This document shows positions 2,424 to 54,242 of a stretch of 64,000 bases of DNA, one piece after another. The translations under genes were made by a program, and so were the position numbers. The stretch lies in the NCBI RefSeq assembly GCF_056746865.1, contig NZ_CM163382.1. The stretch is one strand, 5' to 3'. A model generated the notes under the pieces. That model was given only the letters and a program-made list of their open reading frames with translations, did no database searches and was not told the origin of the DNA. Position 1 is the stretch's first letter; the number at the start of each line of letters is the position of its first letter.

Positions 2424-5075
2424 TTAGCGACAGATTGCTGTCTGCTGGTTCAGTAAGGTACCAGGAGAAACTTCAGGAAGCTTGTACTCGACAATACAGT
2501 TTGAGTTTTTATCTTTGCCCCATGAAACCTGTAATTTCCCTGACTGTGGAAGTCCAGTCAGATAAACCTGACCGTTTTCCGCGACAATGCTGCCATTTTT
2601 ATTCTTTCCGTGAGTGACAATTGCACCGAATGGAACGCTCTTATTACCGTACTTCAACGTCATTAATACTTTCCCGCCGATTTGTGCATTAAATGTTGCT
2701 CTGGCAATAGCACCGTGAGTTGGGATGACAGTGACCACGGTTTCATCCAGTTCAACATTATCTGCAAGGGAATTCGCGTTAAGAGCGACACGATTTTCTC
2801 TATATTCTGTCGCAAATGGTAATATGGCATAGCCACGCCAGTCGGTATGAATACCGGTCTGGTTCTCTATTTTGACATTATCAGCGCCAGGAGCCTTAAC
2901 CAGAACCATTGTGTCGCCCAGCGGCTGTCCAAAGGTGATGCCATCAGCATGAGCAATAATGCCACCACTCATTCCGTAATAAATCTGGCTGCTGTCACCA
3001 CTCCGACTGTAACCGACATTCGTATTACCGTAAGCTCCACGATAATTAAGAGAACTGTAACCACTGGTGCCAGACGATGTATTACCCCCGTGGGTGTTAC
3101 CGACCTGAACACTATAATTCAGGTTATTATCCGGCAGCAGAGTGCCATAAACTCCCGATAGATTGGTCATGCCGCCTTTCAAATCGTTTGACATACTGTA
3201 ACTGGCGTTTGAATTACGAAATGCCGACTGACTGTCTGTACGCATCCAATGACTGAAGGGAACATTAAGCGTAAAAGCAAGTAAATGATCCCGATCGTTT
3301 TGCCATATATTATTGGAATAGCTGTAATTCAGCGAAGTCGTAATATCACCAAACGGCACATTTAATCCAAATGATATTTGCTGGTCGCTGCGTGACGTGT
3401 TCCAGTAACTTTGGCGACTGGCACTAAAAAATGTCGTACCGTAATTTCCAAGCTGCTGAGAGATGCTTATTTGTTCCTGACCACGCTTACTGTAGAACAG
3501 ATTAAAATAATCAATAAATTGTGTCTGCTCGTTGCTGTCTCCGGTAGGAGGCTTGACGGTGTAACCACTCATTCGACTGTAGGCACTGTCGGATAAGTTA
3601 TAAAAACCTTGCGTAGAATAGCGATATCCTGCGACCTGGATATTGGTTCCCGTCTGGTAGAAGGATTTGCTGTAGACGGATTTAATCGATTGCCCGCTGT
3701 GACGGGTGCCATCTGCAAGTGTCGTATTGGCCTGCGTGATATCGAAAGAAAAGGCACCAAAAAGTCCTAAATCTTTACCAATACCAAGGTTGAAGGCCTG
3801 ATAATCTTCTGCAATTTGCATTCCGCCATAAGGTGTCCAGTTTCCTTCCAGTCCATGCATCAAGCTACCTTGTATGAACTTGGGGGAGCTTTGCAGGTTA
3901 TTTCCACTACGATATTCCCCCATGGCAAGCGCATAACGCGTATATCCAGCACGTTGGAGAACCGGAACAGACGAATAAGGAACATATAATGTCTGAATAC
4001 TGCCGTCTGCCTCTTTTATGGTTACTTGCAGATCACCACCATTGGCCGCAGAGTTGATATCATCAATAGTAAAAGGGCCGGGTGGGACAGTAGTCTGATA
4101 AACATCGTATCCATTCTGTTTTACACTCACTTGTGCGGTGCCGCGGGCAATACCATGAATCACCGGAGCGAAACCATGTTGGCTATCGGGCAACATCGCT
4201 TCTGTTGAATTTATTTTGAGGCCACGAAAGTTCACACTATCAAAAATATCGCCATCGGTATAACTATCACCTACCGTTAAGCGTGAGCGTAAGGGAATAA
4301 TGTCACGTTCAGCCGACGTATTGATATGCTGCCATTTATTGCTGTCAGATGAATTGCTACTCCCACTGTTATAACTCCACGTTGAGTTATCGCGCAGTCG
4401 CCAACTACCAATGTTGATGCCACTCTGTAAATTCAAATATGCATAGTTGGATTTTCCTGCATTATGGTTACTACGATTATTAATAGAATTACCATTAAAA
4501 CTATAGTTTAGAAGCCCAGCATTTATTCCTTCTTCCCACAGATCAGGAGAAACATAGCCGCGAGCCATTCTGCCAACATAAATTTGCGGAACGGAGAGTG
4601 ACAGATGTTGCTGACCAACATCAAACTCAGTTGATGCGTCGGCCAAACGATCCTGAAGTGGTGTGCATGCGCTGTTGTCCGGCACATGTTTTTCTGCCGA
4701 ATGTTCTTTATTGTCTAATAACGCTGATTTTTTTATGCCAAGACTGACTAGAAGATCTGTACTCAGGCATGGGATGAGATCTGCGTTATTATCATCTGCA
4801 ATAAAAGTAATATCCCGACTAGTAATAAATTCGTCGTTCAAATAAATGTCGACCCGATATGTACCAGGTGGTGCCTCGCGTCCCTTAGTAAAGGCGGATA
4901 AATCGACAGATTCAGCAAGATCATTGCTTAAAAACCGTGGATTAAAATAATACTCTGCGTCAACGGGAAATACCGCAGTTGCTAAGCCAAGGGCAATGGT
5001 AAGCCGTGCAAAGCGAGGCAGTAGTAACACCTGATGCATACGATATGCCTTAAATGCGGCACGAAAGGCTGTCAT
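2424..5075 (-). CDS. ydeT: fimbrial outer-membrane usher (FimD/PapC family), apparently full length
   Basis: 883-aa ORF, Asn/Ser/Tyr/Gly-rich beta-barrel composition and usher length; follows chaperone gene; true start may be internal Met 13. Confidence 0.85.
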   Translation of the reverse strand: MTAFRAAFKAYRMHQVLLLPRFARLTIALGLATAVFPVDAEYYFNPRFLSNDLAESVDLSAFTKGREAPPGTYRVDIYLNDEFITSRDITFIADDNNADLIPCLSTDLLVSLGIKKSALLDNKEHSAEKHVPDNSACTPLQDRLADASTEFDVGQQHLSLSVPQIYVGRMARGYVSPDLWEEGINAGLLNYSFNGNSINNRSNHNAGKSNYAYLNLQSGINIGSWRLRDNSTWSYNSGSSNSSDSNKWQHINTSAERDIIPLRSRLTVGDSYTDGDIFDSVNFRGLKINSTEAMLPDSQHGFAPVIHGIARGTAQVSVKQNGYDVYQTTVPPGPFTIDDINSAANGGDLQVTIKEADGSIQTLYVPYSSVPVLQRAGYTRYALAMGEYRSGNNLQSSPKFIQGSLMHGLEGNWTPYGGMQIAEDYQAFNLGIGKDLGLFGAFSFDITQANTTLADGTRHSGQSIKSVYSKSFYQTGTNIQVAGYRYSTQGFYNLSDSAYSRMSGYTVKPPTGDSNEQTQFIDYFNLFYSKRGQEQISISQQLGNYGTTFFSASRQSYWNTSRSDQQISFGLNVPFGDITTSLNYSYSNNIWQNDRDHLLAFTLNVPFSHWMRTDSQSAFRNSNASYSMSNDLKGGMTNLSGVYGTLLPDNNLNYSVQVGNTHGGNTSSGTSGYSSLNYRGAYGNTNVGYSRSGDSSQIYYGMSGGIIAHADGITFGQPLGDTMVLVKAPGADNVKIENQTGIHTDWRGYAILPFATEYRENRVALNANSLADNVELDETVVTVIPTHGAIARATFNAQIGGKVLMTLKYGNKSVPFGAIVTHGKNKNGSIVAENGQVYLTGLPQSGKLQVSWGKDKNSNCIVEYKLPEVSPGTLLNQQTAICR

Positions 5076-5836: not shown

Positions 5837-6189
5837 TCTCCATGTGTTAAGAGGATAAGCGGGAAAACCGTTACATCAGACAATCAGTAAATATTGCTAA
5901 TACATTGGCGACTCGCCGGGTTTCCAGACTTAATGCGTTTGTAATAAATGTTGGTTCTCTTTTAATAGGAAAACCTTGCTACAAAGTAAATATTTTAAAT
6001 AACAGTAAGTTTAACTACTGTTGTTTATTGATCGTTTAGATATTATGTGATTTTTTCATACCGCTCCAAAACACAAACTATTCCTCATTAATAATGAGAT
6101 GAACATTGGTGAATTGCTCGGGTGTGCGTAGCCATGCCACACACACCCTGTTTCAATTTCAGATGACGTATAGCCACCTTAAGATTGAA

Positions 6190-6753: not shown

Positions 6754-7186
6754 AATTCTCCAAAATTTATATTTAAGTAGCTTAATAAAGAAAGTTAACA
6801 ATCAAGTCATTCTGTTATTGCTTATAAAACAAGAATCATTCTTGATGGGATATTGCCCTGAGAATATAGTTTCCAGGGTTATTACATTTCACGAAGAACG
6901 ATAATATCTTTAAATTACAAGGACACCTAATCACAACAAGTTTATTGCAGCACTTGTTGTAGAGAGTATTTGCAAAGACATTTTATGTCGCTAAATAACA
7001 TTACGATTTCATTATGCATGTTATTTATAAACAGCGACTAAACAGAATATTATTGCGAACAAGGGAAGTGTCAGGAAAGGTCAAGAGTTACTAATGGTTT
7101 ATATGGCTAAAAATCATTAGCTATGGTTAATGTTTGCTTTCTGAAACTAACGCCAAATTGCTCTAACCAGATAAATGCAGGGTTTA

Positions 7187-17302: not shown

Positions 17303-20300
17303 TTACCAGCTATATTTCACACCCAGCATGCCCTGAGTATCGCTATAGCCTTTATCACCTAGTTGCACACCGACATTCCCCCACAGGCTAAGGTTGTTAT
17401 TTACTTTCGCCTCAACCCCGGTACGTACTTCACCGAGATTACGCGCACCATCACGGCTTACGGTTTGACCATTCATCTTCACGGCGTAGACTTTGCTGTT
17501 GTTGATCCAGTTCGCTTCAATGTAAGGCTGGAACTCACGCTGTTTACCATTGTCACGCTGGTGATGACTGTTCAGGTAGGTTTTCACCCCAAGTCGCGTT
17601 TGCACGTTTCCGTCACCTTCCGTTTCAATGCGTGTTCCGTCCTTCCGGATATGGTCAGAATCTTTCACACCCATCCAGGTGATTTGCACCTGTGGCTGGA
17701 CGTACCAGGTATTCAGCGTCCCTTCGCTGCCGCTAAATGTTCCCGCTTCAAAGGTATACCCACCCTCAACAGAGGCCGTCACACCGCGAGAATCATAGTC
17801 GTCAGCAGAACGGTTATCGGAACTGACGCTGTTATCAAACCAGTTATACAGCGCCCAGCTGTCAACATAAGCGCCGGTCTTATTCGCATCGTTCTGATAC
17901 CAGGTCGCGTAAATCCCAGCGCTGTACCCGCTGATGCGCCCATCCGATTTATAACCCACACGATTACTCTGAGTATTACTGTGCTGATTGGCATAGCCTG
18001 CCATGACGCCGAGATGCCAGCGATCCTGCGCGTTGCTACTCCACTGCGCCAAATCGCCGCCTAGCTGCAATACATAGCGGTTAGCCTGAGTATTTAGCTG
18101 ACCGTCACCGGCCCTTGAACGTTCGTGCCCTCCGACATGACGCATCCACATACTGCTTGCCGAACCCTGAGAATGCAGTGAATCTGTATACTGCGGCTCA
18201 CCCAGACGGTCGTGTAAACGATGGCTAAACAGCGAGTTGGCTGCGGCAATGTTGCTGATATAGCTTCCGGCCTCCGGGCGATAAACTGATGGGCCTTCCG
18301 GATCCACAACAGGAGGATTATTGATGGGATCGGGTGTATCCGCTGGCGTTACGCCGTCCCATTTACTGGTCAGATACCAGTTTTTCTCGTCATTCCCCTT
18401 CCCTTTAGCCAGCGTGTAGACGTAAGCCCCAGCTTCGACAGTTCCGGTGGTCAGCGCGAAGTTACCTGCAGAATTACCGCCGACCTCAATGAGTTCAATA
18501 CCGTTGACAGTTTGTGCACCGACGCCGCCAATGTTATCAACCCGAACGCGAGTATTCCCTTGGGTATCGCCTTTCACGTTCATCTTATCGGTGGGCGAAT
18601 TATCGCCGCCCAGCGTCGCGTTGAACGTCATCAGGCCATTGTTTCCGGTATAGTTACCGTTAACGGTCAGTACATTCCCCGGTTTTCCTCCTTCGCTGTT
18701 CATTTGAACCGTGCCACCATTCTCCAGGTTACCGCCGACAGTGGTTTTAGCGACACGCAGTGTCCCCCCTGGCATAACGTTCACATCACCTGCAGTGGTG
18801 ACATTTCCCGACATCACACCGCTGTTATGGATATTAATGTGTTGACTTGCCATATTAATGGCAGAGTCGGAACCGAAAGCAATTTCACCACCCACGATAT
18901 CCGTCGTACCCTGATACGCCGCGGAATCTTTGTTAAGAGTCAGGATCCCGGTCCCCAGTTTTGTCACATCACCGCTACCGCTGATACTGTGCGTCATCGC
19001 CCAGCTACGCTCAGTGGAGATGGTGAGCAGGCCATTATTGATAACGGAAGCATCACCCAGGTTTTTCTGCTCGTTGACGCTGAGCGCGCTGCCTGTATCA
19101 ATGTTGAATTGCCCCACAAAGCGGCTATTATCGCCATCCAGCTCTACATCTGTCCTGGCGGTTGCGCTCACGATACCCTTCCCGCTTATGCTATTACGCA
19201 GTTCGCCGGTCACATTTTTTAGCGTTAACAGACCGTCATTGGCAATATTTCCTCTGCCTAACCCCTGCGTATTATCGAGGCTGACTTCGGCATTTGGGCT
19301 AATGCTGGTTAACGCATTGTAGCGTGCATTAAGCCCCTCGATAGCCAGTGTTCCCCCTGTAACATTCAGGTTTCCGCCACCTGTCAGTTCGCCCTGACTG
19401 ATCCCACCTTTATTCACCGTCAGCGACCCCTCTTTAAACAAAACAGTCGAACCCATCAGCCCGGTGAATGTCTCTACCGTCTGGGCCGATCCATTAAGAT
19501 CGACGATGGCCGCGTTGCTGATGTTCAGTTCCCGAGTATTGCCCAGCGCGCCATCCGCATCGGTACGTAATGTCCCCATCTGAACGTAGGTTGCCCCCTG
19601 ATAGTCGTTCTGACCGTTAGAAAGCGAAACCTGTCGCACCGTATTGATTGCCAGATCCCCTTCACCACCGATTTTTGCCGACATATCGGCCGTTGCGCCA
19701 TAGGCTCCGCCATGTTCGGCTAACGTCAGCTTTTGCCCACCATGGATGTTCAGCGCTTTCAGCTCATAGTTAACGTACAAACCATCACCTGGTGCGGTCG
19801 TGAGGCGGAATCCATAATCACCCTCGGCGACCACTATTCCGTTTTGTGCAATGTGTAACGTTTTGTCCGCTTCCACCTCGTCGCCCTGTAAATCACGTAA
19901 CGTTAATGAGCCACCCGACCCAATAACCGTTTGCGCCTTCACCAGTTGAACGCCGACATGGCTATCATCGTGTTCCAGCAAATTGAGCGTCGTCAGAGGG
20001 TTATTCGCCATGGGATCATTCCACGGTTTAGGCACGTCGATAAGCACGTCGCCCGTCCCGTTTACCTGATAGTTACGGCCTTTCCAGGTGTAGTCACCCG
20101 CGCCGACAACCAGTGTATCGACGCTGATATATCCCTCCGCAAGCGTCGCAGCAGGTATATCCGTATCGAAAGTGAGCGTACCGCCATTCATGGCTAGTCC
20201 ACCAATGGATTGCTCTCCCACTTTTACCGATGTGGTATTTTCACTGTCAGACTGCAGCATCGCGTGAGTAAGCGCAGCGGTGTTGTCGCGTTCCAGTGCG

Positions 20301-43360: not shown

Positions 43361-44024
43361 AGTGGTACGTTTTAATGATTTCCAGGATGCCGTTAATAAT
43401 AAACTGCACCCCCATACATACCAGCAGGAATCCCATCAGACGAGAGATCGCTTCAATGCCCCCCTTACCCACCAGCCGCATAATTGCGCCAGAGCTGCGT
43501 AGACTTCCCCACAAAATAACCGCCACCAGGAAAAAGATCAGCGGCGGCGCAACCATCAGTACCCAATCAGCAAAGGTTGAACTCTGACGCACTGTGGACG
43601 CCGAGCTAATAATCATCGCTATGGTTCCCGGACCGGCGGTACTTGGCATTGCCAGTGGTACAAAAGCAATATTGGCGCTGGGTTCATCTTCCAGCTCTTC
43701 CGACTTGCTTTTCGCTTCCGGTGAATCAATTGCTTTCTGTTGCGGAAAGAGCATTCGAAAACCGATAAACGCGACGATTAAGCCGCCTGCAATTCGCAGA
43801 CCGGGAATCGAAATGCCAAATGTATCCATCACCAGTTGCCCGGCGTAATACGCCACCATCATGATGGCAAAGACGTACACCGAGGCCATCAACGACTGAC
43901 GATTACGTTCGGCACTGTTCATGTTGCCTGCCAGGCCAAGAAATAACGCGACAGTTGTTAATGGGTTAGCTAACGGTAGTAACACCACCAGCCCCAGGCC
44001 AATTGCTTTAAATAAATCTAACAT
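43359..44024 (-). CDS. marC: MarC-family inner-membrane protein
   Basis: 221-aa hydrophobic ORF divergent from marRAB. Confidence 0.85.
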
Positions 44025-44136
44025 TGGTGGTTGTTATCCTGTGTATCTGGGTTATCAGCGAAAAGTATAAGGGGTAAACAACGATAAAGTGTCACTCTTT
44101 AGCTAGCCTTGCATCGCACTGACCAAAACTTGAACC

Positions 44137-44234
44137 GATTTAGCAAAACGTGGCATCGGTCAATTCATTCATTTGACTTATACTTGCCTGGGCAATATTA
44201 TCCCCTGCAACTAATTACTTGCCAGGGCAACTAA
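44137..44234 (+). promoter_or_regulatory. marO: marbox, -35/-10 and two MarR operator palindromes
   Basis: Marbox GATTTAGCAAAACGTGGCAT (44137-44156); -35 TTGACT 44173-44178; MarR site I TACTTGCCTGGGCAATATTA 44181-44200 overlapping -10 TATTAT; site II TACTTGCCAGGGCAACTAA 44216-44234. Confidence 0.85.
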
Positions 44235-44235
44235 T

Positions 44236-44670
44236 GTGAAAAGTACCAGCGATCTGTTCAATGAAATTATTCCATTGGGTCGCTTAATCCATATGGTTAA
44301 TCAGAAGAAAGATCGCCTGCTTAACGAGTATCTGTCTCCGCTGGATATTACCGCGGCACAGTTTAAGGTGCTCTGCTCTATCCGCTGCGCGGCGTGTATT
44401 ACTCCGGTTGAACTGAAAAAAGTGTTATCGGTCGACCTGGGGGCGCTGACCCGTATGCTGGATCGCCTGGTCTGTAAAGGCTGGGTGGAAAGGTTGCCGA
44501 ACCCGAATGACAAGCGCGGCGTACTGGTAAAACTTACCACCAGCGGCGCGGCAATATGTGAACAATGCCATCAATTAGTTGGCCAGGACCTGCACCAAGA
44601 ATTAACAAAAAACCTGACGGCGGACGAAGTGGCAACACTTGAGCATTTGCTTAAGAAAGTCCTGCCGTAA
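44236..44670 (+). CDS. marR: multiple-antibiotic-resistance repressor MarR (GTG start)
   Basis: 144-aa [23 protein letters not shown]…; carries Ser103 and His137. Confidence 0.9.
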
Positions 44671-44689
44671 ACAAAAAAGAGGTATGACG

Positions 44690-45073
44690 ATGTCCAGACG
44701 CAATACTGACGCTATTACCATTCATAGCATTTTGGACTGGATCGAGGACAACCTGGAATCGCCACTGTCACTGGAGAAAGTGTCAGAGCGTTCGGGTTAC
44801 TCTAAATGGCACCTGCAACGGATGTTTAAAAAAGAAACCGGTCATTCATTAGGCCAATACATCCGCAGCCGTAAGATGACGGAAATCGCGCAAAAGCTGA
44901 AGGAAAGTAACGAGCCGATACTCTATCTGGCAGAACGATATGGCTTCGAGTCGCAACAAACTCTGACCCGAACCTTCAAAAATTACTTTGATGTTCCGCC
45001 GCATAAATACCGGATGACCAATATGCAGGGCGAATCGCGCTTTTTACATCCATTAAATCATTACAACAGCTAG
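44690..45073 (+). CDS. marA: AraC/XylS-family activator MarA
   Basis: 127 aa from [28 protein letters not shown]…. Confidence 0.9.
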
Positions 45074-45104
45074 TTGATAACGTGACAACGTCACTGAGGC
45101 AATC

Positions 45105-45323
45105 ATGAAACCACTTTTATCCGCAATTGCAGCTGCGCTTATTCTCTTTTCCGCGCAGGGCGTTGCGGAACAAACCACGCAGCAGGTTGTTACTTCCTGT
45201 GCCAATGTCGTGGTTGTTCCCCCATCGCATGAACAACCACCGTTTGATTTAAATCACATGGGTACTGGCAGTGATAAGTCGGATGCGCTCGGCGTGCCCT
45301 ATTATAATCAACACGCTATGTAG
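45105..45323 (+). CDS. marB: periplasmic MarB
   Basis: 72-aa ORF with signal peptide. Confidence 0.85.
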   Translation: MKPLLSAIAAALILFSAQGVAEQTTQQVVTSCANVVVVPPSHEQPPFDLNHMGTGSDKSDALGVPYYNQHAM

Positions 45324-45332
45324 TTTGTTCTG

Positions 45333-45355
45333 GCCCCGACATATCGGGGCTTATT
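45333..45355. terminator. bidirectional hairpin terminator between marB and eamA
   Basis: GCCCCGA-cata-TCGGGGC stem then TTATT. Confidence 0.6.
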
Positions 45356-46253
45356 AACTTCCCACTTTTACCGCTTTACGCCACCGCAAGCCAAATACAT
45401 TGATATACAGCCCGGTCATAATGAGCACCGCACCGAAAAATTGCAGACCCGTTAAGCGTTCATCCAGCAATAGTGCCGCACTTGCCAGTCCTACTACGGG
45501 CACCAGTAACGATAACGGTGCAACCCGCCAGGTTTCATAGCGTCCCAGTAACGTCCCCCAGATCCCATAACCAACAATTGTCGCCACAAACGCCAGATAC
45601 ATCAGAGACAAGATGGTGGTCATATCGATAGTGACCAGACTGTGAATCATGGTTGCGGAACCATCGAGAATCAGCGAGGCAACAAAGAAGGGAATGATTG
45701 GGATTAATGCGCTCCAGATTACCAGCGACATCACCGCCGGACGCGTTGAGTGCGACATGATCTTTTTATTGAAGATGTTGCCACACGCCCAACTAAATGC
45801 TGCCGCCAGGGTCAACATAAAGCCGAGCATCGCCACATGCTGACCGTTCAGACTATCTTCGATTAACACCAGTACGCCAAAAATCGCTAAGGCGATCCCC
45901 GCCAATTGTTTGCCATGCAGTCGCTCACCGAAAGTAAACGCGCCAAGCACGATAGTAAAAAACGCCTGTGCCTGTAACACCAACGAAGCCAGACCAGCAG
46001 GCATACCGAAGTTAATGGCACAAAAAAGAAAAGCAAACTGCGCAAAACTGATGGTTAATCCATACCCCAGCAGCAAATTCAGTGGTACTTTCGGTCGTGC
46101 GACAAAAAAGATAGCCGGAAAAGCAACCAGCATAAAGCGCAAACCGGCCAGCATCAGCGGTGGCATGTTATGAAGCCCCACTTTGATGACCACAAAATTT
46201 AGCCCCCATACGACCACTACCAGTAGCGCCAACACCCCATCTTTTCGCGACAT
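45354..46253 (-). CDS. eamA: cysteine / O-acetylserine exporter (DMT family)
   Basis: 299 aa from MSRKDGVLALLVVVVWGLNFVVIK…. Confidence 0.85.
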   Translation of the reverse strand: MSRKDGVLALLVVVVWGLNFVVIKVGLHNMPPLMLAGLRFMLVAFPAIFFVARPKVPLNLLLGYGLTISFAQFAFLFCAINFGMPAGLASLVLQAQAFFTIVLGAFTFGERLHGKQLAGIALAIFGVLVLIEDSLNGQHVAMLGFMLTLAAAFSWACGNIFNKKIMSHSTRPAVMSLVIWSALIPIIPFFVASLILDGSATMIHSLVTIDMTTILSLMYLAFVATIVGYGIWGTLLGRYETWRVAPLSLLVPVVGLASAALLLDERLTGLQFFGAVLIMTGLYINVFGLRWRKAVKVGS

Positions 46254-46447
46254 TCTACCGCCTCTGAATTTCATCTTTTGTAAGCAATCAACTTAGCTGA
46301 ATTTACTTTTCTTTAACAGTTGATTCGTTAGTCACCCTTTACGACGGCATTAATGCGCAAATAAGTCGCTATACTTCGGATTTTTGCCATGCTATTTCTT
46401 TACATCTCTAAAACAAAACATAACGAAACGCACTGCCGGACAGACAA

Positions 46448-47635
46448 ATGAACTTATCCCTACGACGCTCTACCAGCGCCCTTCTTGCCTCGTCGTTGTT
46501 ATTAACCATCGGACGCGGCGCTACGCTGCCGTTTATGACCATTTACTTGAGTCGCCAGTACAGCCTGAGTGTCGATCTAATCGGTTATGCGATGACAATT
46601 GCGCTCACTATTGGCGTCGTTTTTAGCCTCGGTTTTGGTATCCTGGCGGATAAGTTCGACAAGAAACGCTATATGTTACTGGCAATTACCGCCTTCGCCT
46701 GCGGTTTTATTGCCATTCCTTTAGTGAATAACGTGACGCTGGTGGTGCTCTTTTTTGCCCTCATTAACTGCGCCTATTCCGTTTTTGCTACTGTGTTGAA
46801 AGCCTGGTTTGCCGACAATCTTTCGTCCACCAGCAAAACGAAAATCTTCTCAATCAACTACACCATGCTCAACATTGGCTGGACCATCGGTCCGCCGCTC
46901 GGCACGCTGTTGGTGATGCAGAGCATCAATCTGCCCTTTTGGCTGGCAGCTATCTGTTCCGCGTTTCCCATGCTTTTCATTCAAATTTGGGTAAAGCGCA
47001 GCGAGAAAATCATCGCCACGGAAACAGCCAGTGCCTGGTCGCCGAAAGTTTTATTACAAGATAAAGCACTGTTGTGGTTTACCTGCTCTGGCTTTCTGGC
47101 TTCTTTTGTTAGCGGCGCATTTGCTTCATGCATTTCACAATATGTGATGGTGATTGCTGATGGGGATTTTGCCGAAAAGGTGGTCGCGGTTGTTCTTCCA
47201 GTGAATGCTGCCATGGTAGTTACGTTGCAATATTCCGTGGGCCGGCGACTTAACCCGGCTAACATCCGCACGCTGATGACAGCAGGCACCCTCTGTTTCG
47301 TCATCGGTCTGGTCGGTTTTATTTTTTCCGGCAACAGCCTGCTATTGTGGGGTATGTCAGCTGCGGTATTTACTGTCGGTGAAATCATTTATGCGCCGGG
47401 CGAGTATATGTTGATTGACCATATTGCGCCGCCAGGAATGAAAGCCAGCTATTTTTCCGCTCAGTCTTTAGGCTGGCTTGGTGCGGCGATTAACCCATTA
47501 GTGAGTGGCATAGTGCTAACCAACCTGCCGCCTTCCTCGCTGTTTATCATCTTAGCGTTGGTGATCATTGCTGCGTGGGTGCTGATGTTAAAAGGAATTC
47601 GTGCAAGACCGTGGGGGCAGCCCGCGCTTTGTTGA
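46448..47635 (+). CDS. ydeE: MFS transporter
   Basis: 395-aa hydrophobic ORF. Confidence 0.85.
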   Translation: MNLSLRRSTSALLASSLLLTIGRGATLPFMTIYLSRQYSLSVDLIGYAMTIALTIGVVFSLGFGILADKFDKKRYMLLAITAFACGFIAIPLVNNVTLVVLFFALINCAYSVFATVLKAWFADNLSSTSKTKIFSINYTMLNIGWTIGPPLGTLLVMQSINLPFWLAAICSAFPMLFIQIWVKRSEKIIATETASAWSPKVLLQDKALLWFTCSGFLASFVSGAFASCISQYVMVIADGDFAEKVVAVVLPVNAAMVVTLQYSVGRRLNPANIRTLMTAGTLCFVIGLVGFIFSGNSLLLWGMSAAVFTVGEIIYAPGEYMLIDHIAPPGMKASYFSAQSLGWLGAAINPLVSGIVLTNLPPSSLFIILALVIIAAWVLMLKGIRARPWGQPALC

Positions 47636-47860
47636 TTTAAGTCGAACACAATAAAAATTTAATTCAGCCTTCGTTTAGGTTACCTCTGCTAATATCTTTC
47701 TCATTGAGATGAAAATTAAGGTAAGCGAGGAAACACACCACACCATAAACGGAGGCAAATAATGCTGGGTAGACTGGCCCCCTGAATCTCCAGACAACCA
47801 ATATCACTTAAATAAGTGATAGTCTTAATACTAGTTTTTAGACTAGTCATTGGAGAGCAG

Positions 47861-48226
47861 ATGATTGATGTCTTAGGACCGGAGAAACGCAGACGGCGTA
47901 CTACACAGGAAAAGATCGCTATTGTTCAGCAGAGTTTTGAACCGGGAATGACGGTCTCCCTTGTTGCCCGGCAACACGGTGTGGCAGCCAGCCAGTTATT
48001 TCTCTGGCGCAAGCAATACCAGGAGGGAAGTCTTACTGCTGTGGCCGCAGGAGAGCAGGTCGTTCCTGCCTCTGAACTTGCTGCTGCCATGAAGCAGATT
48101 AAAGAACTCCAGCGCCTGCTCGGCAAAAAAACGATGGAAAATGAACTCCTTAAAGAAGCCGTTGAATACGGGCGTGCAAAAAAGTGGATAGCGCACGCGC
48201 CCTTATTGCCCGGGGATGGGGAGTAA
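47861..48226 (+). CDS. insC: IS2 InsC (OrfA)
   Basis: 121 aa [26 protein letters not shown]… with GGAG RBS. Confidence 0.9.
48178..48184 (+). other. IS2 -1 programmed frameshift heptamer AAAAAAG
   Basis: A6G slippery sequence at the insC/insD overlap. Confidence 0.7.
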
Positions 48227-49089
48227 GCTTAGTCAGCCGTTGTCTCCGGGTGTCGCGTGCGCAGTTGCACGTCATTCTCAGACGAACCGATGACTGGAAA
48301 GATGGTCGCCGCAGCCGTCACTCAGATGATACGGATGTGCTTCTCCGTATACACCATGTTATCGGAGAGCTGCCCACGTATGGTTATCGTCGGGTATGGG
48401 CGCTGCTTCGCAGACAGGCCGAACTTGATGGTATGCCTGCGATCAATGCCAAACGTGTTTACCGGATCATGCGCCAGAATGCGCTGTTGCTTGAGCGAAA
48501 AACCGCTGTACCGCCATCGAAACGGGCACATACTGGCAAAGTGGCCGTGAAAGAAAGCAATCAACGATGGTGCTCTGACGGGTTCGAGTTCCGCTGTGAT
48601 AACGGAGAAAAACTGCGAGTCACGTTCGCGCTGGACTGCTGTGACCGTGAGGCACTGCACTGGGCAGTCACTACGGGCGGCTTCGACAGTGAAACAGTAC
48701 AGGACGTAATGCTGGGAGCGGTGGAACGCCGCTTCGGCAACGAGCTTCCGGCGTCTCCAGTAGAGTGGCTGACGGATAATGGTTCATGCTACCGGGCTAA
48801 TGAAACACGGCAGTTTGCCCGGATGTTGGGGCTTGAACCGAAGAACACGGCGGTGCGGAGTCCGGAGAGTAACGGCATAGCAGAGAGCTTCGTGAAAACG
48901 ATAAAGCGTGACTACATCAGTATCATGCCTAAACCAGACGGGTTAACGGCAGCAAAGAACCTTGCAGAGGCGTTCGAGCATTATAACGAATGGCATCCGC
49001 ATAGTGCACTGGGTTATCGCTCGCCACGGGAATATCTACGGCAGCGGGCCAGTAATGGGTTAAGTGATAACAGGTGTCTGGAAATATAG
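48184..49089 (+). CDS. insD: IS2 InsD (OrfB, DDE transposase)
   Basis: 301-aa ORF overlapping insC in the -1 frame. Confidence 0.9.
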
Positions 49090-49220
49090 GGGCAAATCCA
49101 CTGGGTAATATGAATGTTTTTATGGCCGTACTGGGAATAATTTTATTTTCTGGTTTTCTGGCCGCGTATTTCAGCCACAAATGGGATGACTAATGAACGG
49201 AGATAATCCCTCACCTAACC

Positions 49221-49260
49221 GGCCCCTTGTTACAGTTGTGTACAAGGGGCCTGATTTTTA
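49221..49260 (+). terminator. Rho-independent terminator downstream of mgtS
   Basis: 10-bp perfect stem GGCCCCTTGT / ACAAGGGGCC with 11-nt loop followed by TGATTTTTA. Confidence 0.75.
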
Positions 49261-49269
49261 TGACGGCAA

Positions 49270-49377
49270 AAAAAAACCGCCAGTAAACCGGCGGTGAATG
49301 CTTGCATGGATAGATTTGTGTTTTGCTTTTACGCTAACAGGCATTTTCCTGCACTGATAACGGATCGTTGACACAGT
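49270..49377 (-). ncRNA. mgrR: candidate PhoP-activated small RNA (MgrR-like)
   Basis: Minus-strand PhoP-box-type promoter (see 49402-49418) with -10-like AAAACT, about 100-nt transcript ending at minus-strand hairpin CCGCCGGTTTACTGGCGG + U9 (49268-49294); no long ORF. Confidence 0.45.
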
Positions 49378-49401
49378 AGCATCAGTTTTCTCAATGAATG
49401 T

Positions 49402-49418
49402 TAAACGGAGCTTAAACT
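49402..49418 (-). promoter_or_regulatory. PhoP-box-like direct repeat AGTTTA-N5-CGTTTA overlapping the dgcZ stop codon
   Basis: Read on minus strand; matches (T/G)GTTTA-N5-(T/G)GTTTA at 10 of 12 positions; a -10-like hexamer follows after 12 bp. Confidence 0.45.
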
Positions 49419-50302
49419 CGGTTAATCACATTTTGTTCGTCAATAAACATACAGCGATTTCTTCCGGTTTGCTTACCCTCATACATTGCCCGGTCCGCTC
49501 TTCCAATGACCACATCCAGAGGTTCTTCAGGAAATGCGCGACTCACACCTGCAGTCACGGTAATGTTGATATGCCCTTCAGAATGTGTGATGGCATGGTT
49601 ATCGACTAACTGGCAAATTCTGATACCTGCACGACATGCTTCTTCATCATTAGCCGCTTTGACAATAATGATAAATTCTTCGCCACCGTAGCGATAAACC
49701 GTTTCGTAATCGCGCGTCCAACTGGCTAAGTAAGTTGCCAGGGTGCGTAATACTACATCGCCGATTAAATGCCCGTAGGTATCATTAACCAATTTAAATC
49801 GGTCAATATCCAACAACATTAAATAAAGATTCAGAGGCTCAGCGTTGCGTAACTGATGATCAAAGGATTCATCAAGAACCCGACGACCCGGCAATCCCGT
49901 CAAAACATCCATATTGCTACGGATCGTCAGCAAATAAATTTTGTAATCGGTTAATGCCGCAGTAAAAGAAAGCAACCCTTCCTGAAAGGCGTCGAAATGC
50001 GCGTCCTGCCAGTGATTTTCAACAATAGCCAACATTAATTCCCGACCACAGTTATGCATATGTTGATGGGCAGAATCCATTAGCCGAACGTAAGGTAATT
50101 CATCGTTATCGAGTGGTCCCAGATGATCAATCCACCGACCAAACTGGCACAGTCCATAAGAATGGTTATCCGTTATTTCTGGCTTACTGGCATCTCTCGC
50201 GACCACGCTGTGAAACATACTCACCAGCCACTGGTAGTGGGCATCGATAGCCTTATTGAGATTTAACAAGATGGCATCAATTTCCGTTGTCTTCTTGATC
50301 AT
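49412..50302 (-). CDS. dgcZ: zinc-sensing diguanylate cyclase (CZB + GGDEF)
   Basis: 296 aa from MIKKTTEIDAILLNLNKAIDAHYQWLV…; GGEEF motif (…RYGGEEFIIIV…). Confidence 0.9.
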   Translation of the reverse strand: MIKKTTEIDAILLNLNKAIDAHYQWLVSMFHSVVARDASKPEITDNHSYGLCQFGRWIDHLGPLDNDELPYVRLMDSAHQHMHNCGRELMLAIVENHWQDAHFDAFQEGLLSFTAALTDYKIYLLTIRSNMDVLTGLPGRRVLDESFDHQLRNAEPLNLYLMLLDIDRFKLVNDTYGHLIGDVVLRTLATYLASWTRDYETVYRYGGEEFIIIVKAANDEEACRAGIRICQLVDNHAITHSEGHINITVTAGVSRAFPEEPLDVVIGRADRAMYEGKQTGRNRCMFIDEQNVINRV

Positions 50303-50556
50303 TGCCACTCCTTTTTCACAGTTCCTTGTGCGCGCTATTCTAACGAGAGAAAAGCAAAATTACGTCAATATTTTCATAGAAATCCGAAGTTATGAGTCAT
50401 CTCTGAGATAACATTGTGATTTGAAACAAAATCAGCAGATAAAAAAGTGTTTAATTCTGTAAATTAAGCCTGCATTATCGCAATTAAAAGGATGACAAAT
50501 AGCATAAACCAATACCCTAATGGCCCAGTAGTTCAGGCCATCAGGCTCATTTATTT

Positions 50557-50949
50557 TTATTTCTGCAAATGAGTGACCCGAACGACGGCCGGCGCGCTTT
50601 TCTTATCCAGACTGCCGCTAATGTTGATCATCTGGTCCGGCTGAACTTCTCGTCCATCAAAGACTGCCGCAGGAATAACAACATTAATTTCACCGCTCTT
50701 ATCGCGAAAAACGTAACGGTCCTCTCCTTTGTGAGAAATCAAATTACCGCGTAGTGAAACCGAAGCGCCATCATGCATGGTTTTTGCGAAATCTACGGTC
50801 ATTTTTTTTGCATCATCGGTTCCGCGATAGCCATCTTCTATTGCATGAGGCGGCGGTGGCGCTGCATCCTGTTTTAAACCGCCCTGGTCATCTGCCAACG
50901 CATAAGGCATGACAAGAAAACTTGCTAATACAATGGCCTGAAATTTCAT
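50557..50949 (-). CDS. ydeI: periplasmic OB-fold (BOF/YgiW family) stress protein
   Basis: 130-aa ORF with signal peptide. Confidence 0.85.
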
Positions 50950-51191
50950 ACTGACTCCTTAATTGCGTTTGGTTTGACTTATTAAGTCTGGTTGCTATTT
51001 TTATAATTGACAAATAAGAATACTGCCAATTGTTATAAGGCATTTAAAATCAGGCAACTAGCTGTCAAATATTAAGAGAATTTAACTCACTAAAGTAAGA
51101 AGAAGATTAAAGAGTCTTAAACATATTTCAGAACAATCAGATTTATAAATTTGAAAATTATTATAACGGAAGGGTATACAAAAAAAGTAAT

Positions 51192-51269
51192 TTTGCTGGC
51201 GACTGCGAAACGGCATTCGCATTAGCGGTGAAGTTTGCCCCCACCCAGCTGCTGCAATTACTGCTCTAA
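51192..51269 (+). pseudogene. possible 3'-terminal remnant of a deleted ydeJ-like (CinA C-terminal-domain) gene
   Basis: Plus-strand frame without start codon ends …FAGDCETAFALAVKFAPTQLLQLLL* just before a strong hairpin; loosely resembles CinA/PncC-type C-termini; no full ORF present. Confidence 0.3.
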
Positions 51270-51272
51270 CCA

Positions 51273-51302
51273 GGCTGGCCTGGCGATATCTCCAGGCCAG
51301 CC
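51273..51302. terminator. 11-bp perfect inverted repeat GGCTGGCCTGG-N8-CCAGGCCAGCC between gene remnant and dcp
   Basis: Read from sequence; 12 bp beyond dcp stop; U-richer on plus strand. Confidence 0.5.
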
Positions 51303-51313
51303 ATTGGTGGTGT

Positions 51314-53359
51314 TTATATGTTCAAGCCACGATGTTGCAGCATCGGCATAATCTGAGGTGCCTTACCGCGCCATTGTCGATACAGGCGTTCCAGATCTTC
51401 GCTGTTACCTCTGGAAAGAATCGCCTCGCGAAAACGCCGCCCATTTTCACGCGTTAATCCGCCCTGCTCAACAAACCACTGGTAACCATCATCGGCCAAC
51501 ATTTGCGTCCACAGATAAGCGTAATAACCTGCGGCATATCCGCCACCAAAAATATGGGCGAAATAACTGCTGCGATAGCGTGGCGGTATAGCGGGAAGAT
51601 CCATATTTTCTGCCACCAGCGCCCGCAATTCGAAATCATCGACATCCTGCATTGCTTCGTTTTCTTCCAGGCAATGCCAGCGCATATCGAGAAGTGCGGC
51701 GCTAAGCAGTTCGCTCATCTCATACCCTTTATTGAACAGGCTGGCATTACGCATTTTCTGTTGCAGTTCGTCAGGCATTGCTGCCCCGCTCTGATAATGC
51801 CGGGCGTAGCGAGCGAATACCTGCGGATGCGTTGCCCAGTGTTCGTTGATTTGCGACGGAAATTCGACAAAATCACGCGGCGTGTTGGTGCCGGAAAGTG
51901 TGGCATAACGCTGGCGGGCAAAGAGGCCGTGCAACGTATGACCAAATTCATGGAATAAGGTTATGACATCATCCCAGAGTAACAACGCAGGCTCACCGGC
52001 AGCGGGTTTCTGATAATTGCAGACGTTATAAATTACCGGATGCGTTTCATTAAGCGTTGATTGCTCAACAAAATTGCCCATCCATGCACCGCCGCTTTTT
52101 GAATCACGGGCGAAGAAATCACCGTAAAATAACGCCAGCCCCACGCCATTATGATCAAAAATTTCCCATACACGAACGTCAGGATGGTAGACAGGAATAT
52201 CAAAACGTTCGACAAACTTAATACCGAAGAGCTGATTCGCGGTCCAGAATACACCTTCATTCAACACCGTGTTTAATTCAAAATATGGCTTGAGCTGCGA
52301 TTCATCGAGATCGAATTTCTCACGTCTTACCTGCTCGGCATAAAATGCCCAGTCCCACGGCTGCGCGCTAAACCCGCCCTGCTGCTTATCGATAACCGCC
52401 TGTATGGAGGCTAATTCATCGCTCGCACGTTGACGCGCCGCTGGAACAATTTCCCGCATAAAGTTGAGTGCTGCTTCTGGCGTTTTTGCCATCTGATCGG
52501 CGATTTTCCATGCGGCATAATGAGGGAAACCAAGCAGTTTCGCCTGCTGCGCGCGGATCTCCACCAGACGTTGAATGATAGCGCGGGTATCATTGGCATC
52601 ATTTTTTTCCGCTCGCGTCCAGCCCGCAGTGAACAGTTTTTCACGCGTCGCGCGATCGCGCAGTTCAGCAAGCGCTGGTTGCTGGGTGGTATTCAGCAAC
52701 GGAATCAGCCATTTGTTATCCAGACCTTTCTCGCGAGCCGCCTCTGCCGCCAGCGCAATCTCTTGCTCACTCATTCCTGCCAGCTGCGCGAAATCGTTCA
52801 CAACCAGACCGCCGGATTTATTTGCTGCCAGTAACCGCTGGTTAAACTGGCTGGTCAGGGTCGCAGCTTCTGTATTCAGGACTTTTAATTTTGCTTTATC
52901 AGCTTGTGCAAGTTTGGCTCCGGCAAGGACAAAACGTTGATGAATGACCTCCACCAGGCGGATGGATTCACTATCAAGTCCCAGGGATTCACGGCGTTGC
53001 CAGACAGCATCTACCCGCGCGAATAATTCACCGTTCAGATAGATATCATTAGCCAGTTCCGCCAGTTCAGCGGAAAACTGTTCATCAAGACGCTGTAATT
53101 CATCATTAGTATGCGCCGCAGTCATCGCAAAAAAGACGCTGGTAACGCGGGTAAGTAATTCTCCGCTTTGTTCCAGTGCCAGAATAGTATTGTTGAAATC
53201 AGGTGTTTGCGGGTTAAGCGCGATGGCAGCAATTTCTGCCCGCTTTTGCTGCATTCCCTCATCGAATGCCGGGCGATAGTGATGATTGGCAATTTGATCA
53301 AAATGGGGAGCCAGATACGGCAGTGTGCTTTGCACAAGGAAAGGATTCATTGTTGTCAT
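51314..53359 (-). CDS. dcp: dipeptidyl carboxypeptidase II (M3 metallopeptidase)
   Basis: 681 aa from MTTMNPFLVQSTLPYLAPHFDQI…; HEFGH zinc motif (…TLFHEFGHTLHG…). Confidence 0.9.
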   Translation of the reverse strand: MTTMNPFLVQSTLPYLAPHFDQIANHHYRPAFDEGMQQKRAEIAAIALNPQTPDFNNTILALEQSGELLTRVTSVFFAMTAAHTNDELQRLDEQFSAELAELANDIYLNGELFARVDAVWQRRESLGLDSESIRLVEVIHQRFVLAGAKLAQADKAKLKVLNTEAATLTSQFNQRLLAANKSGGLVVNDFAQLAGMSEQEIALAAEAAREKGLDNKWLIPLLNTTQQPALAELRDRATREKLFTAGWTRAEKNDANDTRAIIQRLVEIRAQQAKLLGFPHYAAWKIADQMAKTPEAALNFMREIVPAARQRASDELASIQAVIDKQQGGFSAQPWDWAFYAEQVRREKFDLDESQLKPYFELNTVLNEGVFWTANQLFGIKFVERFDIPVYHPDVRVWEIFDHNGVGLALFYGDFFARDSKSGGAWMGNFVEQSTLNETHPVIYNVCNYQKPAAGEPALLLWDDVITLFHEFGHTLHGLFARQRYATLSGTNTPRDFVEFPSQINEHWATHPQVFARYARHYQSGAAMPDELQQKMRNASLFNKGYEMSELLSAALLDMRWHCLEENEAMQDVDDFELRALVAENMDLPAIPPRYRSSYFAHIFGGGYAAGYYAYLWTQMLADDGYQWFVEQGGLTRENGRRFREAILSRGNSEDLERLYRQWRGKAPQIMPMLQHRGLNI

Positions 53360-53495
53360 TTTCTTCTCCTGAACGCGAGGTGTTCCATAGCGTAGGCTTA
53401 CTGATAACGGAGTGCAATCTTGCAAACCAGTATTACCCGCTCTTAAGCATCACGTGCTATGTTATTGACACACAAAAGCGTTGAGGAACAGTGAG

Positions 53496-54242
53496 ATGAT
53501 CGTTTTAGTAACTGGAGCAACGGCAGGTTTTGGTGAATGCATTACTCGTCGTTTTATTCAACAAGGGCATAAAGTTATCGCCACTGGCCGTCGCCAGGAG
53601 CGGTTGCAGGAGTTAAAAGACGAACTGGGAGATAATCTTTATATCGCCCAACTGGACGTTCGCAACCGCGCCGCTATTGAAGAGATGCTGGCATCGCTTC
53701 CTGCCGAGTGGAGCAATATTGATATCCTGGTAAATAATGCCGGCCTGGCGTTGGGCATGGAGCCTGCGCATAAAGCCAGCGTTGAAGACTGGGAAACGAT
53801 GATTGATACCAACAATAAAGGCCTGGTATATATGACGCGCGCCGTCTTACCGGGTATGGTTGAACGTAATCATGGTCATATTATTAACATTGGCTCAACG
53901 GCAGGTAGCTGGCCGTATGCCGGTGGTAACGTTTACGGTGCGACGAAAGCGTTTGTTCGTCAGTTTAGCCTGAATCTGCGTACGGACCTGCATGGTACGG
54001 CGGTGCGCGTCACCGACATCGAACCGGGTCTGGTGGGTGGCACCGAGTTTTCCAATGTCCGCTTTAAAGGCGATGACGGTAAAGCGGAAAAAACCTATCA
54101 AAATACCGTTGCATTGACGCCAGAAGATGTCAGCGAAGCCGTCTGGTGGGTATCAACGCTGCCTGCTCACGTTAATATCAATACCCTGGAAATGATGCCG
54201 GTTACCCAAAGCTATGCCGGACTGAATGTCCACCGTCAGTAA
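53496..54242 (+). CDS. ydfG: NADP-dependent 3-hydroxy acid dehydrogenase (SDR)
   Basis: 248 aa from MIVLVTGATAGFGECITRRF…; Rossmann motif. Confidence 0.9.
   Translation: MIVLVTGATAGFGECITRRFIQQGHKVIATGRRQERLQELKDELGDNLYIAQLDVRNRAAIEEMLASLPAEWSNIDILVNNAGLALGMEPAHKASVEDWETMIDTNNKGLVYMTRAVLPGMVERNHGHIINIGSTAGSWPYAGGNVYGATKAFVRQFSLNLRTDLHGTAVRVTDIEPGLVGGTEFSNVRFKGDDGKAEKTYQNTVALTPEDVSEAVWWVSTLPAHVNINTLEMMPVTQSYAGLNVHRQ

Follow-up and report, generated by a model that had tools for sequence, protein, structure and literature searches.

MgrR is described as a 98-nt, PhoP/PhoQ-dependent and Hfq-binding class II sRNA, with a G at residue 41, a pairing region that extends from U55 to A68 and an A-rich, (ARN)5-like centre (PMC6239178). 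The promoter fusion mgrR-lacZ tracks PhoP levels, and the sRNA was reported to be 'directly activated by PhoP' (PMC3536696). The flanking genes are mgtS (yneM) and dgcZ (ydeH) (PMC8545128); mgrR is convergent with mgtS and its transcription is PhoPQ-dependent (bioRxiv 10.1101/2021.06.30.450655), and mgtS-mgtT constitutes a PhoQP-dependent operon (PMC11429745). The PhoP-activated genes of E. coli carry their PhoP boxes at the -35 region, and such a box follows the criterion (T/G)GTTTA-N5-(T/G)GTTTA with at most 2-3 mismatches (PMC7667037). For both K-12 and Salmonella, the literature presents MgrR as an RNA that depends on PhoP for its transcription and on Hfq for its stability in vivo. The 5′ end was reportedly mapped originally, and the PhoP box marked, by Moon and Gottesman in 2009. 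A further point of comparison is offered by sRNAs of the MicL and DapZ types, which are embedded in a 3′UTR and possess a promoter of their own, located within the upstream gene or just behind it.

Here, we analysed a window of 64,000 nucleotides (the whole stretch of DNA under study), in which a sequence-only reading had placed MgrR on the minus strand beside mgtS, with its promoter inside the coding end of dgcZ. Identity, annotated boundaries, conservation, architecture and synteny were computed in this work, while PhoP dependence, Hfq binding and targets were taken from the literature. The locus is that of the already characterised E. coli sRNA MgrR and its detection is a rediscovery of a known and annotated gene; PhoP dependence and the position beside dgcZ and mgtS are likewise established and annotated, and the finding overall is of little consequence. 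What the analysis provides is a corrected promoter anatomy, backed by about 60 species, together with the outcome that the half-site overlapping dgcZ is specific to Escherichia. Our main reading, to which we assign a probability of about 0.9, joins three elements (Table 1): MgrR at 49366..49269 on the minus strand, a conserved PhoP box with an extended -10 as its core promoter, and a dgcZ-overlapping half-site that lies outside this core.

Table 1. Features of the mgrR region, in window coordinates.
Feature	Position	Strand	Basis
IS2, 1331 bp, in mgtS codon 3	47770..49100	+	IS2 ends, InsC and InsD ORFs
mgtT, small ORF, 34 aa	49193..49297	+	ORF; annotated in K-12 (b4775) and 118UI
Long GC hairpin in mgtT, between mgrR and mgtS	49219..49253		second stem of Rfam model; sequence
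Rho-independent terminator, 8-bp stem, 4-nt loop, T9	49268..49295	-	terminator scan
MgrR sRNA, 98 nt	49269..49366	-	K-12 RefSeq b4698 mapped by alignment
Seed/target-pairing region, U55-A68, UAUCCAUGCAAGCA	49299..49312	-	PMC6239178; identical to K-12
A-rich (ARN-type) Hfq-binding stretch, nt 37-52, AAAAGCAAAACACAAA	49315..49330	-	unpaired in fold; PMC6239178
5′ stem-loop, nt 5-35	49332..49362	-	MFE fold
Extended -10, TG-c-TACTGT, hexamer 49378-49373	49373..49381	-	conservation
AAAACT, -10 of the sequence-only reading, unsupported	49384..49389	-	low information content
Conserved PhoP box CGTTTA-ACATT-CATTGA, -41 to -25	49391..49407	-	conservation
dgcZ (diguanylate cyclase) CDS, stop TAA 49414-49412	49412..50302	-	ORF; RefSeq 118UI, K-12
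Extra half-site AGTTTA, -52 to -47, Escherichia-specific	49413..49418	-	conservation

Identity, boundaries and architecture of MgrR

A scan of positions 44000-54000 against Rfam gave a single match above the gathering score: 49400..49187 of the minus strand matched RF01407 (STnc560, 'Hfq binding RNA'). This match reached 281.1 bits, where the gathering score is 55 (E = 4.5e-65), and covered the model end to end (positions 1-214 of 214). The K-12 MG1655 ncRNA mgrR (b4698; RefSeq 1622817..1622914, minus strand) maps to 49366..49269 and agrees with the window at 97 of 98 bases. The sole substitution within the RNA lies at +4, where K-12 has U and the window has C, the state of most other species; in addition, K-12 has eight T and then C at the T-run, where the window has nine T and then G. 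The seed, the A-rich Hfq site and the U-tailed terminator are all identical to K-12, and locus, strand, neighbours and promoter elements are the same as well, while the convergent mgtS is split by IS2 in the present strain. The 321-bp mgrR region was found between dgcZ and mgtT/mgtS in 5,414 of 5,426 complete E. coli genomes, and the gene order ydeE, mgtS, mgtT, mgrR, dgcZ, ydeI is that of K-12 and 118UI. The Rfam score and the K-12 alignment thus bear out the proposed identity of the RNA, and its minus-strand, convergent orientation towards mgtS agrees with both the K-12 annotation and the published description (bioRxiv 10.1101/2021.06.30.450655).

The predicted locus and strand hold, but the predicted start does not. 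It had been placed near 49377, while the annotation puts the 5′ end 11 nt further downstream, at G49366. When counted from 49366, nt 41, 55 and 68 are G, U and A, respectively, whereas counting from 49377 gives U and A at nt 41 and 55. The published numbering (98 nt, G41, U55-A68) fits only the start at 49366 and is therefore incompatible with one at 49377. At the other end of the RNA, the GC hairpin and U9 were confirmed at the place given for them: ACCGCCGG-TTTA-CTGGCGGT occupies 49295-49276 and nine T follow at 49276-49268. In a scan of 48900-49700, this hairpin was the sole terminator-like site.

Between promoter and terminator, the same reading had seen no ORF. This is correct insofar as the MgrR strand holds no meaningful one, although it has two mechanical ORFs, one at 49374..49258 (38 aa) and one at 49307..49230 (25 aa). 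Neither is annotated and both were rejected as coding, since the longer begins upstream of +1 and the shorter crosses the terminator. The statement overlooks, however, the annotated mgtT on the opposite strand, which overlaps the mgtS stop (ATGA) and covers the final 29 nt of MgrR in antisense, across the MgrR terminator. As a result, mgtS-mgtT and MgrR transcription overlap at their 3′ ends.

MgrR folds at -25.9 kcal/mol (z = -2.9), and the seed is mostly unpaired in the MFE structures. When RNAalifold was applied to 65 homologues in a MAFFT alignment, only the terminator was recovered, with 7 pairs kept in the 65 sequences and one AU->GC compensatory pair in 19 of them. The 5′ hairpin is missed by this procedure because the alignment is rich in indels there; folding of each sequence was therefore substituted, and the hairpin was observed in 65/65 homologues, representing 58 distinct 5′ sequences (median of 12 pairs, -11.8 kcal/mol). 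MgrR has four parts, namely the 5′ hairpin, the A-rich stretch for Hfq binding, the seed (nt 55-68), which is single-stranded, and the U-tailed terminator; according to the literature, the seed pairs with targets such as eptB, ygdQ and pitA.

Anatomy of the mgrR promoter

Homologues were collected from one genome per species with an exact 20-mer of the MgrR seed as query, which yielded 67 loci among which the invariance of the seed is, owing to this retrieval, partly by construction. Nearly all belong to the Enterobacteriaceae, including Escherichia, Salmonella, Citrobacter, Enterobacter, Lelliottia, Leclercia, Kosakonia, Phytobacter, Pluralibacter, Yokenella and others. The 90 nt upstream of the RNA were aligned, and conservation was counted in the 58 non-Escherichia species.

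The positions common to 54-58 of these 58 species are GTTTA at 49406-49402 (identical in 56-58), TT at 49398-49397, TT at 49394-49393, TG at 49381-49380, TA at 49378-49377 and T at 49373. The proximal half-site at 49396-49391 reads yrTTGA, and its TT is invariant in this set. The conserved pattern is yGTTTA-N5-yrTTGA, followed after 12 bp by an extended -10 of the form TGnTAnnnT, and the 12-bp spacer between box and -10 is kept in 57 of 61 sequences. In the window, the minus strand reads AAC CGA GTT TAA GCTC CGTTTA ACATT CATTGA GAAAACTGA TG C TACTGT GTCAAC G(49366)ATCCG, with the last base of the extended -10 located 7 nt upstream of the annotated +1. The alignment with K-12 showed an identical promoter over 49366-49418.

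The same geometry is found at the K-12 promoters of phoP (GGTTTATTTAATGTTTA-12-CATAAT), mgtA (GGTTTATCGTTGGTTTA-12-TATTAT) and mgrB (TAGTTAGGCGCTGTTTA-12-TAGTTT), as well as at the mgtS promoter in the window (AATTCAGCCTTCGTTTA-12-TAATAT). Like phoP P1, mgtA, mgrB and mgtS, the mgrR promoter has what resembles a GTTTA-type direct repeat with an 11-bp period, positioned at -35 and 12 bp from the -10, and with mgrB (TGcTAGTTT) it also has the TGc of the extended -10 in common. Compared with canonical PhoP promoters, the mgrR proximal half-site is degenerate (CATTGA), and there is an extra perfect half-site one turn further up, where the preceding gene has its stop codon. The assignment to the PhoP-activated promoters was correct, in line with both the published activation (PMC3536696) and the box with 12-bp geometry as at phoP, mgtA and mgrB. 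The sigma-70 scan of 48900-49700 returned no TTGACA/TATAAT-type promoter, a result that is expected, and hence uninformative, for an activator-dependent promoter lacking a -35 element.

The direct repeat on which the sequence-only reading was built is present as described (AGTTTA at 49418-49413, AGCTC at 49412-49408 and CGTTTA at 49407-49402), and so is AAAACT at 49389-49384, 12 bases (49401-49390) after CGTTTA. Its 12-bp reasoning was also sound, given the same spacing at phoP, mgtA, mgrB and mgtS. The register, however, is off by one DNA turn (11 bases): E. coli has three phased half-sites, of which the upstream pair was chosen. AAAACT is not conserved, carrying less than 1 bit at each position with the window base common to only 6-20 of the 58 species, and the conserved -10 is TGcTACTGT. 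With respect to the consensus, AGTTTA-AGCTC-CGTTTA has 2/12 mismatches and none in the GTTTA cores, compared with 4/12 mismatches, 2 of them in the cores, for CGTTTA-ACATT-CATTGA. Since the upstream pair is the better consensus match, PhoP may also, or preferentially, occupy it in E. coli. Based on the conservation among species, we infer that the register in use is the conserved box rather than the upstream AGTTTA/CGTTTA pair. Thus, mgrR appears to be a case in which the consensus match by itself picks the wrong PhoP register. At low Mg2+, PhoP~P would bind this conserved box, which would replace the -35 element, and would recruit RNA polymerase to the extended -10, whereby transcription would begin at G49366 and stop at the hairpin and U9.

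Two other layouts of the transcription unit were weighed against this one. The layout first proposed places PhoP on 49418-49402, uses AAAACT as the -10 and starts at ~49377, giving an RNA of ~109 nt. Both of its GTTTA cores are perfect, the distance of 12 bp to a hexamer with A2 and T6 follows the rule of phoP, mgtA and mgrB, and the 64-kb window holds four GTTTA-N6-GTTTA repeats compared with 0.18 expected, a count that 0 of 100 shuffles reached. Nevertheless, we find it the least credible of the arrangements considered, as the annotated 5′ end and the published numbering contradict it, AAAACT and AGTTTA are unconserved in the 58 other species where TGnTAnnnT and yrTTGA are conserved, and the Salmonella and Enterobacter homologues keep MgrR without the upstream half-site. 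It is also very improbable that the whole 214-nt STnc560 unit is a real RNA which would continue past the first terminator, antisense to the mgtS end. The Rfam model does reach from 49400 to 49187, and a second and longer hairpin (49253-49219) is part of it. However, its first 34 positions are promoter, including CATTGA and the -10, the strong U9 terminator ends the RNA at 49268, annotation and literature both give 98 nt, and the second hairpin is situated inside mgtT, on the mgtS/mgtT side. This span was rejected as a transcript because it holds the promoter as well as sequence beyond a strong terminator. The 98-nt MgrR transcribed from the conserved box is the reading retained below.

The dgcZ coding end and the upstream half-site

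The claim that the promoter lies inside the end of dgcZ applies to a part of it. AGTTTA at 49418-49413 covers the last sense codon of dgcZ, GTT (Val), and two bases of the stop, and this extra half-site does touch GTT-TAA. The conserved PhoP box, on the other hand, begins 4 bp past the stop in this strain and is contained entirely in the 45-bp spacer (49411-49367) that separates the dgcZ stop from +1. Because the conserved box is wholly in this spacer, a promoter 'inside the dgcZ coding end' is an overstatement; the general idea of a coding end and an sRNA promoter squeezed together is fair.

The window, K-12 and E. whittamii share a perfect upstream half-site, AGTTTA; the corresponding bases read AGTTTT in E. 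albertii and in an Escherichia lineage labelled E. coli SCPM-O-B-8794 (L017). Outside Escherichia, the match to GTTTA at the offset of AGTTTA is no better than at control offsets. In Salmonella, mgrR directly follows ydeI, and in Enterobacter it comes after an unrelated 120-aa ORF, whose stop also sits just upstream of the box. Judging from the genomes compared, the juxtaposition of dgcZ and mgrR is restricted to Escherichia. In L017 (10030-10060), where the half-site reads AGTTTT, the dgcZ TAA is mutated and the gene gains 7 codons (…INRVLAPFNIH), ending at a TGA within CATTGA, so that the whole mgrR PhoP box is in frame.

In common with the sRNAs of the MicL and DapZ types, MgrR is co-oriented with the upstream CDS and directly follows it with no terminator in between; the terminator is probably shared by dgcZ and mgrR. 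In contrast to these types, the mgrR core promoter and the whole RNA are located past the stop codon in this strain, and in other genera MgrR is found behind unrelated genes. Both differences argue for an independent intergenic sRNA gene and against a 3′UTR derivative.

Two further explanations give the dgcZ end a role in MgrR expression. In one, the three half-sites AGTTTA/CGTTTA/CATTGA form a single promoter with an 11-bp period, where PhoP would either use two registers or assemble into a higher-order complex; the half-site over dgcZ would then tune affinity or threshold and leave the start site unmoved. The spacing of the three half-sites is exactly 11 bp, E. coli, K-12 and E. whittamii have the upstream one in perfect form, and mgtA has a comparable weak third phased half-site (GGGTAA-N5-GGTTTA-N5-GGTTTA). 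We nonetheless regard this promoter form as unlikely, considering that beyond Escherichia the upstream half-site is conserved no more than the control offsets, that two Escherichia lineages read AGTTTT, and that AGTTTA is largely forced by the GTT-TAA codons of dgcZ and may for this reason be a by-product of the coding end. The other explanation concerns transcription from dgcZ. In the scan of 48900-49700, the stretch from the dgcZ stop (49412) to the MgrR terminator showed no terminator-like site, which makes read-through of dgcZ into MgrR plausible on the sequence. A part of MgrR could then be PhoP-independent, as a processed 3′ end of the dgcZ mRNA, or read-through could occlude the PhoP promoter. 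Such a contribution is consistent with the terminator at 49295-49268 being the only one on the MgrR strand, with the mere 45 bp from the dgcZ stop to +1, and with the L017 dgcZ ORF that spans the whole PhoP box. Against it, the searchable literature gave no paper linking ydeH/dgcZ transcription to MgrR, and genera without dgcZ still have the conserved promoter of MgrR, which indicates that this promoter is sufficient; we therefore consider the contribution doubtful, if worth keeping in mind. A combination of both ideas is quite improbable in our view, namely that the placement of dgcZ in Escherichia supplied a third half-site from GTT-TAA along with the missing terminator, such that dgcZ transcripts may carry MgrR or hinder its promoter. 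If this were true, c-di-GMP signalling would be coupled to a Mg2+-responsive sRNA, with dgcZ transcripts answering other signals; no description of such a coupling of c-di-GMP and MgrR via dgcZ was found in the literature searched. The reading in which MgrR is expressed from its own conserved PhoP promoter remains the preferred one.

IS2 in mgtS and minor observations

On the convergent side, mgtS is interrupted by IS2, the ends of which read TAGACTGG... and ...GCAAATCCA. The element follows ATG CTG GG and is flanked by the 5-bp target duplication CTGGG at 47765-47769 and 49101-49105. This insertion leaves a 7-codon mgtS stub behind the PhoP-dependent mgtS promoter and the remainder of mgtS-mgtT promoterless, and mgtT expression is probably lost through it. 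A GTG at 49074, within the end of IS2, shares the frame of what is left of mgtS, resulting in a mechanical ORF of 39 aa. The IS2/mgtS junction was present in 0 of 5,426 complete E. coli genomes. The offset relative to 118UI is exactly 1336 bp, and in the regions tested the sequence is otherwise 100% identical to 118UI and its relatives. The strain has thus lost mgtS, the gene of the partner small protein, to IS2 while MgrR is intact, which may matter for work on Mg2+ homeostasis in this strain.

On the other side of dgcZ, K-12 has ydeJ between ydeI and dcp, and this gene is absent at 50950-51313; 118UI has the same gap, with no more than a small fragment of a pseudogene there, annotated as '2-oxo-tetronate isomerase'.

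The boundaries of the Rfam STnc560 model differ from those of the sRNA, as the model extends ~80 nt past the MgrR terminator, up to sequence antisense to the final codons of mgtS.

Among the homologues, Enterobacteriaceae bacterium RIT691 (L014) possesses two MgrR copies ~1.6 kb apart, at 1408-1505 and 3002-3099. The conserved PhoP box and -10 precede one of them, and the other has an unrelated upstream region with no recognisable box. The seed 20-mer was also found in contigs labelled as non-enterobacterial, namely Chryseobacterium sp. 18061, a Proteobacteria bacterium MAG and a Caldithrix MAG, of which the first two also carry an enterobacterial-type MgrR with a PhoP promoter; this suggests contamination or mis-binning of the three assemblies.

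Upstream of K-12 mgtA (L072, idx 510-537), a weak third half-site lies one turn above the PhoP box and resembles the mgrR layout. The window itself holds three further exact GTTTA-N6-GTTTA repeats, at 6023-6038 on the plus strand and at 7028-7043 and 18215-18230 on the minus strand. Two of these are located in a fimbrial cluster (fimA-like, HTH protein, chaperone) and one in a gene of the ECSE_1600-family autotransporter.
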